Made by a program: the position numbers and the translations under genes. DNA of 64,000 bases, from the NCBI GenBank assembly GCA_951406725.2, contig OX597819.1, forward strand, positions 91,140,001 to 91,204,000, written 5' to 3'. The notes under the pieces are model-generated. The model was not told the DNA's origin and did not search any database. It saw only the letters and a list, made by a program, of their open reading frames with translations. Each line of letters begins with the position of its first letter. The first letter of the stretch is position 1. Shown here piece after piece: positions 21,231 through 24,443 of this stretch. The DNA is from Octopus vulgaris. Lineage: Eukaryota.

Positions 21231-22039
21231 CCACCGGATCATGTAAAAAGCACCATCCGAACGTGACCAATGCCAGTGCCGCCTTGACTGGTTTCTGTGC
21301 CGGTGGCATGTCAAAAGCACCAAGCAATCGTGGTTGTTGCCAGCCCCCTCTGGCCCCTGTGCCAGTGGAATTGCCAGATCAGATTGGAGCTTGGTGCATC
21401 CTCCTGGCTTCCCCGATCCCAGTTGAATCGTCCAACCCATGCCTGCATGGAAAACGGACATTAAACAATGATATAATGATGATGGTGATGATGATATATA
21501 TAGATCTATAATTGGTAGAAGCTATCCTTTTAGTAGAACTCTCTGTACGGATAACTATTGCACTGTATGTAGATTTAGCCCACAAACAAACTGTAAAGCC
21601 AGAAATGTGGTCTATAGTATAAGATGTATAGAGGGACGATGCAGTAACAAGACAGTAACATACGTAGGGGAAACAGCAAGAAGCATTGGTGAGCGGGTGA
21701 ATGAACATTGGAGATAACTCAAGGAAGGTAAAAGCTCATCGATTCTGTACCAACACGCTGAACAAGAACACGGGGGATCAATCAATAACATAGAGATTAA
21801 GATATTGTCCACACATATAACAGATGCAACAATTAGACAAATTACAGAAGCTACACATATAATAGAAAATAAACCTAGCCTGAATAGAAAACTAGAATGG
21901 AGCAATAGCGCACACCACAACATATGACGATAGTGGATCCTGCAAACATAATAAATACACAGATAATTAAAGAAATAGAAATGAATAACTATATATATGT
22001 ATATGTGTATGTATATGTGTATATGTGTGTGTATATATG

Positions 22040-22095
<56 letters not shown>

Positions 22096-22242
22096 AAATA
22101 AATATAAGAGAGTGGTCACTATATGGCTCACTCTAGCACCAGTTAATCCAAAAGGTTTCAACCACAAAAATACATGTTTCCCATGAAAGTCAGTACGATT
22201 GTTAGCTCACACGGACAGGGCAAATAAAAAATAACAAAAATA

Positions 22243-22338
22243 CAGATTATTTTGGGACAATTGTTTCGCTATTAATGAATTAAATGTAATTTTACTTACA
22301 AAAAAATCCACTTGTAGCTCCTCTGCCAAAACTATCTG
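22243..22338 (-). ncRNA. Hammerhead copy with a mutated core (CAGAGGA instead of CUGAGGA)
   Basis: Reverse complement: cagatagTTTTGG-CAGAGGA-GCTA...TAGC-GAAA-CAATTG-TC-CCAAAAtaatctg. Confidence 0.8.
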
Positions 22339-22928
22339 GATGAAATCCACTCAATCACACGCCAGATTTTACCATAACGATAAATACGCGTGTGGTTCAA
22401 TTGATTACATCCGACGTTATAATTCAAATGCCCCAACTAACAGCGCGCCAAATTTTCACGGAAAACAAATACAGCATTTAGAAATAAATGCAGCATAATT
22501 ATAATTAATTAATAAGGGTGAGAGAATTAGATACTAATTTAATAGTATATCTATTCTACACCAAGTGGCCTAGTGCTCCGAGAAACCTGGATTATTATAA
22601 TATTTTATAATATATTATAATATTTTTACAAAATAAATATAAGAGAGTGGTCACTATATGGCTCACTCTAGCACCAGTTAATCCAAAAGGTTTCAACCAC
22701 AAAAATACATGTTTCCCATGAAAGTCAGTACGATTGTTTAATTCTCTCACCCTTATTAATTAATTATAATTATGCTGCATTTATTTCTAAATGCTGTATT
22801 TGTTTTCCGTGAAAATTTGGCGCGCTGTTAGTTGGGCATTTGAATTATAACGTCGGATGTAATCAATTGAACCACACGCGTATTTATCGTTATGGTAAAA
22901 TCTGGCGTGTGATTGAGTGGATTTCATC

Positions 22929-23024
22929 CAGATAGTTTTGGCTGAGGAGCTACAAGTGGATTTTTTTGTAAGTAAAATTACATTTAATTCATTAATAGCG
23001 AAACAATTGTCCCAAAATAATCTG
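22929..23024 (+). ncRNA. Type-I hammerhead ribozyme, intact core; predicted cleavage after GUC at 23011
   Basis: Stem I TTTTGG/CCAAAA extended by CAGAT/ATCTG; CTGAGGA at 22942-22948; stem II GCTA/TAGC; GAAA at 23000-23003; palindromic CAATTG stem III. Confidence 0.88.
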
Positions 23025-23462
23025 TATTTTGTTATTTTTTATTTGCCCTGTCCGTGTGAGCTAACAATCGTACTGACTTTCATGGGAAACATGTATTTTT
23101 GTGGTTGAAACCTTTTGGATTAACTGGTGCTAGAGTGAGCCATATAGTGACCACTCTCTTATATTTATTTTGTAAAAATATTATAATATATTATAAAATA
23201 TTATAATAATCCAGGTTTCTCGGAGCACTAGGCCACTTGGTGTAGAATAGATATACTATTAAATTAGTATCTAATTCTCTCACCCTTATTAATTAATTAT
23301 AATTATGCTGCATTTATTTCTAAATGCTGTATTTGTTTTCCGTGAAAATTTGGCGCGCTGTTAGTTGGGGCATTTGAATTATAACGTCGGATGTAATCAA
23401 TTGAACCACACGCGTATTTATCGTTATGGTAAAATCTGGCGTGTGATTGAGTGGATTTCATC

Positions 23463-23558
23463 CAGATAGTTTTGGCTGAGGAGCTAAAAGTGGATTTTTT
23501 TGTAAGTAAAATTACATTTAATTCATTAATAGCGAAACAATTGTCCCAAAATAATCTG
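23463..23558 (+). ncRNA. Type-I hammerhead ribozyme, intact core; predicted cleavage after 23545
   Basis: Same elements; CTGAGGA at 23476-23482 and GAAACAATTGTC at 23534-23545. Confidence 0.88.
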
Positions 23559-24179
23559 TATTTTTGTTATTTTTTATTTGCCCTGTCCGTGTGAGCTAAC
23601 AATCGTACTGACTTTCATGGGAAACATGTATTTTTGTGGTTGAAACCTTTTGGATTAACTGGTGCTAGAGTGAGCCATATAGTGACCACTCTCTTATATT
23701 TATTTTGTAAAAATATTATAATATATTATAAAATATTATAATAATCCAGGTTTCTCGGAGCACTAGGCCACTTGGTGTAGAATAGATATACTATTAAATT
23801 AGTATCTAATTCTCTCACCCTTATTAATTAATTATATATATATATATATATATTTTTTTTTTTTTCAATTAGATTTATTATTATTATTACTAATATTGTT
23901 GTTATACATACATACAAGCATATGTAATGATAATAATGGGTGGATGTAAACACATGAACAAAATTAGAACAAAAGCAACAACAACAAAAACAAAATACAA
24001 ATTACAAGAATGTATATAACCAGAAGATACAAATATTACAGGCATCCCCCTCACACACACACTAAATAAACATAGACGCACATAGAGATATAAGCATGCG
24101 CAAATGAAGACATACAATAGAAATACAAAATGGCTGACGGTTAGTAAGGAGAGACACAAGTAAGTGAGAAGAAAACAAA

Positions 24180-24224
24180 GGACCACTGATGCGGTCACAG
24201 GAGTGTGACGAAAGAACTTTGGCC
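24180..24224 (+). ncRNA. Second copy of the PLE 3' hammerhead-like variant
   Basis: Identical to 1428-1472. Confidence 0.45.
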
Positions 24225-24399
24225 GAAATAAGATTAAGATTAATGTAAAAAATAAATATCACTGAAGCAAAATAACACCAAATATATAGTGCGTGTGTTT
24301 TTATTGGCTAAACTGGCAATATGACCATTCCGAAATATAACAATATCTGTTTCAACACACGACTTCACATAAAAAATCTTGCACAACAAATATTTAAAC

Positions 24400-24443
<44 letters not shown>

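Follow-up and report, generated by a model that had tools for sequence, protein, structure and literature searches.

A Young Non-Coding Hammerhead Retrozyme of Octopus vulgaris with the Insertion Anatomy of Penelope-like Elements

Metazoan non-LTR retrozymes are non-coding tandem repeats with one type I hammerhead ribozyme (HHR) per unit (Cervera and de la Peña, 2020, PMC7229834; Li, Clavereau and Pollet, 2026, bioRxiv 10.64898/2026.07.22.740005), a plan shared by the octopus element described here. In the former report the units measure 150–450 nt, and in the latter the consensus units range from 51 to 972 bp. Mobilization of retrozymes by Penelope-like elements (PLEs), as these two reports present it, previously rested on co-occurrence and on trees of the PLE pseudo-LTRs (pLTRs). 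The tail of a PLE is often found at one end alone (Craig et al., 2021, PMC8557442), and the PLE protein studied by Frangieh et al. (2024, PMC11167929), which is predicted to be dimeric, cleaves both strands and extends them, starting at two internal sites.

We have analyzed a 64,000-nt stretch of the Octopus vulgaris genome (the window; contig OX597819.1, positions 91,140,001–91,204,000). We consider with good confidence that it contains a non-coding tandem retroelement, an animal non-LTR retrozyme, and that the enzyme of an autonomous PLE, most likely of the Hydra clade, probably copies its RNA into (TA)n. Retrozymes as a class, their likely descent from PLEs and units as long as this one were already known. 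What is new is the presence in a retrozyme of direct signatures of PLE insertion, together with a 127-nt tail, a long-stem HHR of the Hydra type and a used splice donor inside the ribozyme.

The units, their hammerhead and the family

The insertion (22095–23836; locus L070) consists of two arms arranged head to head, joined at 22738|22739, with both 3′ ends entering (TA)n. The plus arm contains two complete units, of 533 bp (22739–23271, plus strand) and 535 bp (23272–23806, plus strand), and ends at u27–30 (23833–23836) in the coordinates of the second unit, which serves as the reference (u1–u535). One substitution and two 1-nt indels distinguish the two units. The inverted arm (22095–22738, minus strand) is 99% complementary to the plus units; it is 5′-truncated at unit position 327, runs from u327 to u535 and then from u1 to u435, and terminates at 22095 in a tail-less end. 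The first-pass annotation had described near-identical tandem units of 533–535 bp with no credible open reading frame, and both the coordinates and the near-identity are confirmed; in a unit trimer the longest frame beginning with ATG encodes 19 amino acids on the sense strand and 52 on the antisense strand. The length of the unit had been thought unusual, but 534 nt falls inside the range of consensus lengths given by Li et al. (2026).

Both plus-strand units carry a complete type I HHR with an extended stem II and a palindromic stem III (ACAAUUGU), at 22929–23024 and 23463–23558, with every element annotated earlier present. These comprise CUGAGGA (at 22942 and 23476), the basal stem II GCUA/UAGC, the sequence GAAA-C-AAUU-G-UC, and a stem I of GUUUUGG/CCAAAAU extended by CAGAU/AUCUG. 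Cleavage is predicted after 23011 and 23545, a spacing of 534 nt, and would release a monomer corresponding to 23012–23545 (plus strand). The predicted monomer is strongly self-paired (z = −5.73, with none of 100 shuffled sequences as extreme). The HHR of the inverted arm (22243–22338, minus strand) has a mutated core, with CUGA changed to CAGA (U4A) at 22324.

Stem II had been annotated as closed by a 43-nt loop. It is indeed long, but in place of a loop the fold gives a lengthened stem capped by a hairpin. Nor is the long stem II wholly distinctive, for the same form is common to the pLTRs of octopus Hydra-clade PLEs and to a genome-wide class of motifs. The Rfam search that had been proposed as a check returned no hammerhead at the gathering score, and none at E ≤ 10; the long stem II is the likely reason. 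A looser pattern with a stem II insert of 38–66 nt and a palindromic stem III matched the genome 13,322 times, compared with 41 matches in the control, and the first 100 rows contain many distinct families. A long stem II is thus a genome-wide style, not peculiar to the 534-nt unit, and some 13,000 hammerhead-like motifs are present in a form that Rfam missed here.

Further families with long-stem-II HHRs were looked at in four loci. A second short family of about 572 nt (L052:8200–8800; L328:668–1064) shares the motif of start site A described below (CACTTGGTG...ACCCT) and also has head-to-head arms. Other HHR-bearing families lie in (TA)n (L039:7400–7900, L033:6850–7050, L062, L332 and L333), several of them as inverted pairs. 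In L332 and L333 the ends are Hydra-like, with no ORF match nearby.

The stems of the HHR covary across at least five subfamilies that are just 60–70% identical. When 12 sequences from subfamilies both young and older were aligned, nine of the 18 stem pairs proved to be changed on both sides, including six of seven pairs in stem I and three of four in the basal part of stem II. None of 500 shuffles equaled this, a count that is no p-value, as the kinship of the sequences can by itself beat shuffles; controls with slid alignments gave far fewer double changes. The core is intact in 188 of the 212 units covered. In most copies of older subfamilies the base of stem II is mismatched, often by U-U, which Perreault (2011) reported to be tolerated. 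These sequence comparisons indicate that the HHR is under selection.

The family was searched for in the 2.8-Gb genome. A search with the unit, of the kind suggested earlier for estimating copy number, gave 961 candidate places, the best 40 of which were scored by similarity; these contain 217 matches, the full-length ones being 98–100% identical. A stem II pattern had 1,668 exact matches and none in the control, with about 78 of the first 100 belonging to the young type. The young loci examined are the 40 ranked by similarity and 29 further loci taken in order of position along chromosome C1. The family is dispersed over most chromosomes, in arms of 1–12 units. The arms are made of units alone that abut the flanking DNA, with no LTR pair around a unique body. 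Older subfamilies, 60–70% identical to the unit, are collinear with it, lack an ORF and keep both 3′ ends. No match to a reverse transcriptase or endonuclease adjoins the unit at any of 70 young loci or 42 loci of older subfamilies, a sample that holds a minority of the genomic copies; the nearest such matches lie at least 1.7 kb from the unit or are part of the PLE into which it is inserted. The copies are therefore not always attached to a PLE ORF. The conclusion that emerges is that this is a young cephalopod non-LTR retrozyme, and not the pseudo-LTR of a coding element.

The earlier suggestion was that the family might be undescribed, and in the literature searched, which did not extend to subscription journals or to Repbase and Dfam, we found neither an octopus retrozyme nor a splice donor placed in stem II. 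No cephalopod retrozyme family was found in the consulted text of Cervera and de la Peña (2020) or in the main text of Li et al. (2026). Distinct substitutions in the alignments of the young family show a sense-strand bias (G>A 32 against C>T 13, A>G 28 against T>C 21), which is weak and of uncertain polarity, and might reflect reverse transcriptase errors or editing.

The splice donor in stem II

The tip of stem II bears a conserved GURAGU, with variation between GTAAGT and GTGAGT among relatives. In the window the 5′ splice donor GTAAGT is at 22968–22973 and, in the second copy, at 23502–23507 (plus strand). Signs of transcription were sought in the contigs of eight of 21 runs, which are guessed to be RNA and come from animals other than the one sequenced. 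Family copies use the donor in three runs: one contig in each of X10, X13 and X4 leaves the unit at the stem II GTAAGT. The three continuations are host exons, each of which in the genome follows immediately on a pyrimidine tract and CAG, with the X13 acceptor found at one of three paralogous places, and two of the three joins lie shortly before an ATG. The exon joined in X10 belongs to a segment present three times at C7:58.62–58.94 Mb, with 35 kb at 99.3% identity. No splice joint internal to the unit was seen in the contigs of the eight runs. The spliced joins in three runs and the sense-strand A>G clusters described below both indicate that the HHR strand is transcribed, in these other animals and in runs guessed to be RNA.

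No family copy was found within 50–69 kb upstream of the spliced exons, or within 100 kb for L206 and L209 only. Such a result could be explained if the retrozyme RNA acted as a selfish spliced leader whose donor is trans-spliced onto host mRNAs, an idea to which we attach very little weight. The haplotype make-up differs among runs, with haplotype 209A almost missing in X15. Because the runs come from other animals and their haplotypes differ, the simple reading is that the splicing took place in cis, from insertions carried only by the animals of those runs. The donor is likely a relic of a PLE pLTR intron, and the splicing to host exons a by-product. Its location at the tip of stem II means that splicing would compete with self-cleavage for the same RNA. 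As the donor is used, insertions are able to alter host transcripts.

Octopus is known for A-to-I editing. Clusters of A>G differences are found on the HHR strand in the runs guessed to be RNA; the deep run X15 has few or none of these changes (for example, 0 at position 23095, at a depth of 1.3 million). The T>C differences, present in X15 too, are genomic alleles. The A>G clusters are as expected for editing of the inverted arms, as we infer from runs unmatched to DNA, and the inverted arms would feed A-to-I editing.

Insertion anatomy, candidate enzyme and template

The 3′ ends of the arms are fixed at one of two sites 127 nt apart, both of which read CYCTTAT-N9|RTA behind a hairpin: site B follows u435, and site A follows u27 of the next unit. 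In the window the site A motif CCCTTAT-N9|ATA (23818–23836, plus strand) forms the 3′ end of the plus arm. The inverted arm ends at site B, the motif of which, CTCTTAT-N9|GTA, is found at 23691–23709 (plus strand), preceded by a hairpin, with its junction at 23706|23707 and also at 23171|23172. The 127-nt tail between these two putative start sites of reverse transcription (23707–23833, plus strand) contains a hairpin whose sequence differs between subfamilies. The 5′ ends, by contrast, are scattered, as by random truncation. Only two of 107 lie within 10 nt of the HHR cut, where about four would be expected, and truncation at the cut was therefore rejected.

The two sites are used one each. 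Site A is paired with site B in 38 of 40 two-armed insertions, the other two (L048 and L065) having one atypical end, and neither A with A nor B with B was found (0/40). The similarity-ranked set gave 23 of 25, with both atypical ends, and the position-ordered set on C1 gave 15 of 15; counting of motifs alone settled 32 insertions, and the other six were read by hand. Single-arm insertions at L050, L057, L047 and L194 appear by eye to have a very short second arm with the other type of end. Microhomology of at least 3 nt occurs at 10 of the 32 arm joints that lack inserted bases, compared with 7% expected; seven joints with inserted bases were left out of this count. The (TA)n flanks mask any target-site duplication (criterion: more than 4 bp when present). 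In the classical twin priming of L1 the second arm begins at the priming point of the first. This mechanism was rejected, since the 5′ starts are scattered.

PLEs of the same genome obey this end rule. In the PLE family that hosts the window insertion it holds at all 17 two-armed loci (among 20 loci), with a tail of 56 nt, and in the Hydra-clade PLEs at 11 of 13, with ends 37 and about 155 nt past the HHR cut, compared with 162 and 289 nt in the octopus unit. Given these PLE-type end signatures, the retrozyme was likely copied by a PLE enzyme, which agrees with the earlier proposal of a non-coding, retrozyme-like element mobilized in trans by a PLE; no ORF adjoins it at the 70 young loci. The insertion anatomy is direct genomic evidence for PLE mobilization. 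The reaction itself is documented in about 70 young insertions, with both ends of the target primed and two mapped start sites used one each.

The copy in the window lies as a single insertion within the (TA)n of a PLE to which it is unrelated; this PLE spans 21502–24405 and was missed in the first-pass annotation. The host copy retains the end of a 5′-truncated ORF (21502–21927, plus strand) with a Cys linker, a GIY-YIG-type endonuclease and one in-frame stop; it is Neptune/Nematis-like and young. The (TA)n tract within its 3′ UTR (21990–22094) was the target, and the rest of its pLTR with a 56–59-nt tail follows at 23853–24405 (plus strand). By eye, though not in our motif scan, this part contains an HHR-like variant (24180–24226, plus strand) with CUGAUGC (A9 to C), a stem II of GTCAC/GTGAC and a short stem I, and a GTAAGT about 25 nt upstream. 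A further copy of the host family at 1–1633 of the window is 98.5% identical to L083, where a full-length Neptune/Nematis-like PLE (L083:1210–5148, minus strand) has a frame of about 1,309 aa with an Asn-rich insert, a 4.6-kb unit and no Pfam match. The host family has 4,743 candidate places and frames of up to 1,312 aa.

We regard the host PLE as the landing site and not as the demonstrated parent of the unit. As a parent it was rejected for want of homology to the unit, as was another young Neptune-like family, which contains a 781-aa frame and has no similarity to it; Naiad_Ovul, flagged HHR_half_core in the supplement of Craig et al. (2021), showed no likeness in DNA by eye. Neither GTAAGTAAAATT nor GAAACAATTGT is found in the sequence file of that supplement, where line breaks might hide a match. 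In all, no autonomous parent was found, the two young Neptune-like families being without DNA similarity to the unit. The second of these (L278:1081–4784) has overlapping frames of 479 and 781 aa and, in its pLTR, repeated CCAAT/TGACGTC blocks ahead of a TATA box.

A search for GIY-YIG endonucleases revealed, besides this second family, a Hydra-clade group of several families (L313:3795–6750, L310–L329 and L040:3–3100). Its motifs RWK, DKT, CxCX5C, CxxC and CxH fit the definition of Hydra in Craig et al. (2021), and no Pfam family was found in the ORFs of the host PLE or of the Hydra group. One Hydra family is young, with frames of about 980 aa, a 4.65-kb unit and a tail of about 118 nt; the Hydras of Craig et al. 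(2021) are smaller, at less than 3 kb. The octopus Hydra PLEs target (TA)n, and the HHRs of their pLTRs share with the unit the long stem II, the C-RAUY-G stem III and the U-rich tract, with 77–82% identity over 44–49 nt from GAAA onward (E = 3e-4 to 9e-4 against a small local set). A profile of the unit tail matched none of five Hydra and three Neptune-like ends, and with no match among tail sequences a helper of the Hydra clade remains the best guess. On these likenesses, we suggest a Hydra-clade PLE as the likeliest helper.

What was the template? Units differ by 1.34 substitutions within arms and by 1.30 between opposite arms, compared with 6.91 between loci, and it follows that both arms derive from one source. 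Among 38 loci with at least two full units, 19 distinct haplotypes are fixed, often on both arms. Such fixation requires a bottleneck of one unit followed by re-expansion, which a circle would simply explain, and the reading of the locus-homogeneous arrays through the HHR cut site without scars fits a circle also. We lean toward this template. The same family might instead be mobilized by a PLE from an uncleaved linear multimer, the HHR having another or a late role and the arrays growing afterward through unequal exchange or template jumps, and this we judge a serious but less probable reading. Eight of the 44 loci with at least three pieces are mosaic, with variants in several but not all units, and four of these are so across both arms; L051 shares a variant in register, as expected of a linear multimer, and M201 contains a repeat of a four-unit block. 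A multimer or later growth at the DNA level would explain these arrays, but the remaining 36 loci have no such variants, and the whole-array haplotypes and the stems that covary across divergent subfamilies speak against it. All units of L182 and L186 and most of those of L061 carry the core change U4C; evidently, units lacking a perfect HHR core can be inserted. In addition, unprocessed RNA is the substrate of PAc and HHR cleavage is dispensable in vitro (Frangieh et al., 2024), while Li et al. (2026) saw cleavage in one of nine frog dimers and propose local amplification via unequal crossover. A cyclic 565-nt contig in X2 is explained equally well by tandem DNA as by a circle.

Other readings depart further from a retrozyme with a Hydra-clade helper. 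It is unlikely that either of the two young Neptune-like families, to one of which the host element belongs, supplies the helper by reading structure and not sequence. Both families are young, with intact ORFs and (TA)n targets, and the host family follows the same end rule; against this, they have no similarity to the unit and no long-stem-II HHR, the tail is shorter (56 nt in the host family against 127), and Arkhipova et al. (2013, PMC3846280) saw no cross-mobilization between PLE types. It is very unlikely that the unit is the pseudo-LTR of an autonomous PLE yet to be found, with the arrays as its truncated copies. The order of donor, HHR and the two sites does resemble a pLTR, and 40 of the 961 candidates were scored by similarity, but no reverse transcriptase or endonuclease adjoins the unit in the sampled young and older loci, the next unit follows directly after site A, and the older subfamilies are likewise unit-like and ORF-less. 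The tandem, AT-rich and homogeneous arrays could also suggest a satellite spread at the DNA level with a chance or vestigial HHR. This reading is excluded by the end structure, with its fixed 3′ and random 5′ ends and the PLE end rule, and sits equally badly with the spread over most chromosomes and the covarying stems.

We therefore return to a retrozyme copied by a PLE. In the mechanism that we propose, Pol II would transcribe the HHR strand, and the HHR, probably dimeric via its palindromic stem III, would cut the multimers into 534-nt monomers. Some of these may be ligated into circles, by analogy with the retrozymes of coral, mussel and axolotl. The PLE protein would cut both strands of (TA)n and extend both ends round the continuous template, one end primed from site A and the other from site B within the same RNP, and the two cDNAs would then join, often through microhomology. 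Intact candidate enzymes and a 534-nt RNA open the choice between circle and multimer, and the question of how the PLE tail arose, to tests in vitro.

Comparison with known systems

The octopus unit resembles the metazoan non-LTR retrozymes in its weak palindromic stem III, low GC content and self-paired monomer, and in its dispersed monomers to multimers in a genome that also contains PLEs. It differs in its length, which exceeds the range of Cervera and de la Peña (2020), and in a stem II of about 50 nt with a used splice donor. Circles and cleavage are reported for metazoan retrozymes, whereas those of the octopus unit are predicted from sequence. Inverted arms with two start sites are not described for retrozymes in the consulted text of Cervera and de la Peña (2020) or the main text of Li et al. 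(2026).

These same features are found in the EN+ PLEs (Arkhipova et al., 2013; Craig et al., 2021; Frangieh et al., 2024), which share 5′ truncation, partial tandems and head-to-head copies, a tail at one end, (TA)n targets, and an HHR and splice signal in the pLTR region. Unlike them, the octopus unit has no ORF, has a tail of 127 nt instead of 30–40, and reaches 12 units per arm. The closest likeness is to the octopus Hydra-clade PLEs (L280–L329 and L040; Hydra-1_Obim is listed in Craig et al., 2021), in the long stem II, the C-RAUY-G stem III, the U-rich tract past stem I, the long tail and the targets. Their tails have no significant homology to that of the unit, however, and they lack the GURAGU hairpin; the published HHR of Hydra-1_Obim has a short loop II (supplement of Craig et al., 2021).

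Chlamys elements such as MRC1 are also non-autonomous PLE derivatives with multicopy head-to-tail insertions (Craig et al., 2021). Most of them are without an HHR, unlike the octopus unit, and their 3′ end resembles that of an autonomous partner, whereas no close partner was found for the unit. In the Penelope of Drosophila virilis (Cervera and de la Peña, 2014, PMC4209133), as in the octopus unit, a splice signal overlaps the HHR; there the 3′ end of an intron meets helix I, while in the octopus unit a 5′ donor occupies the tip of stem II.
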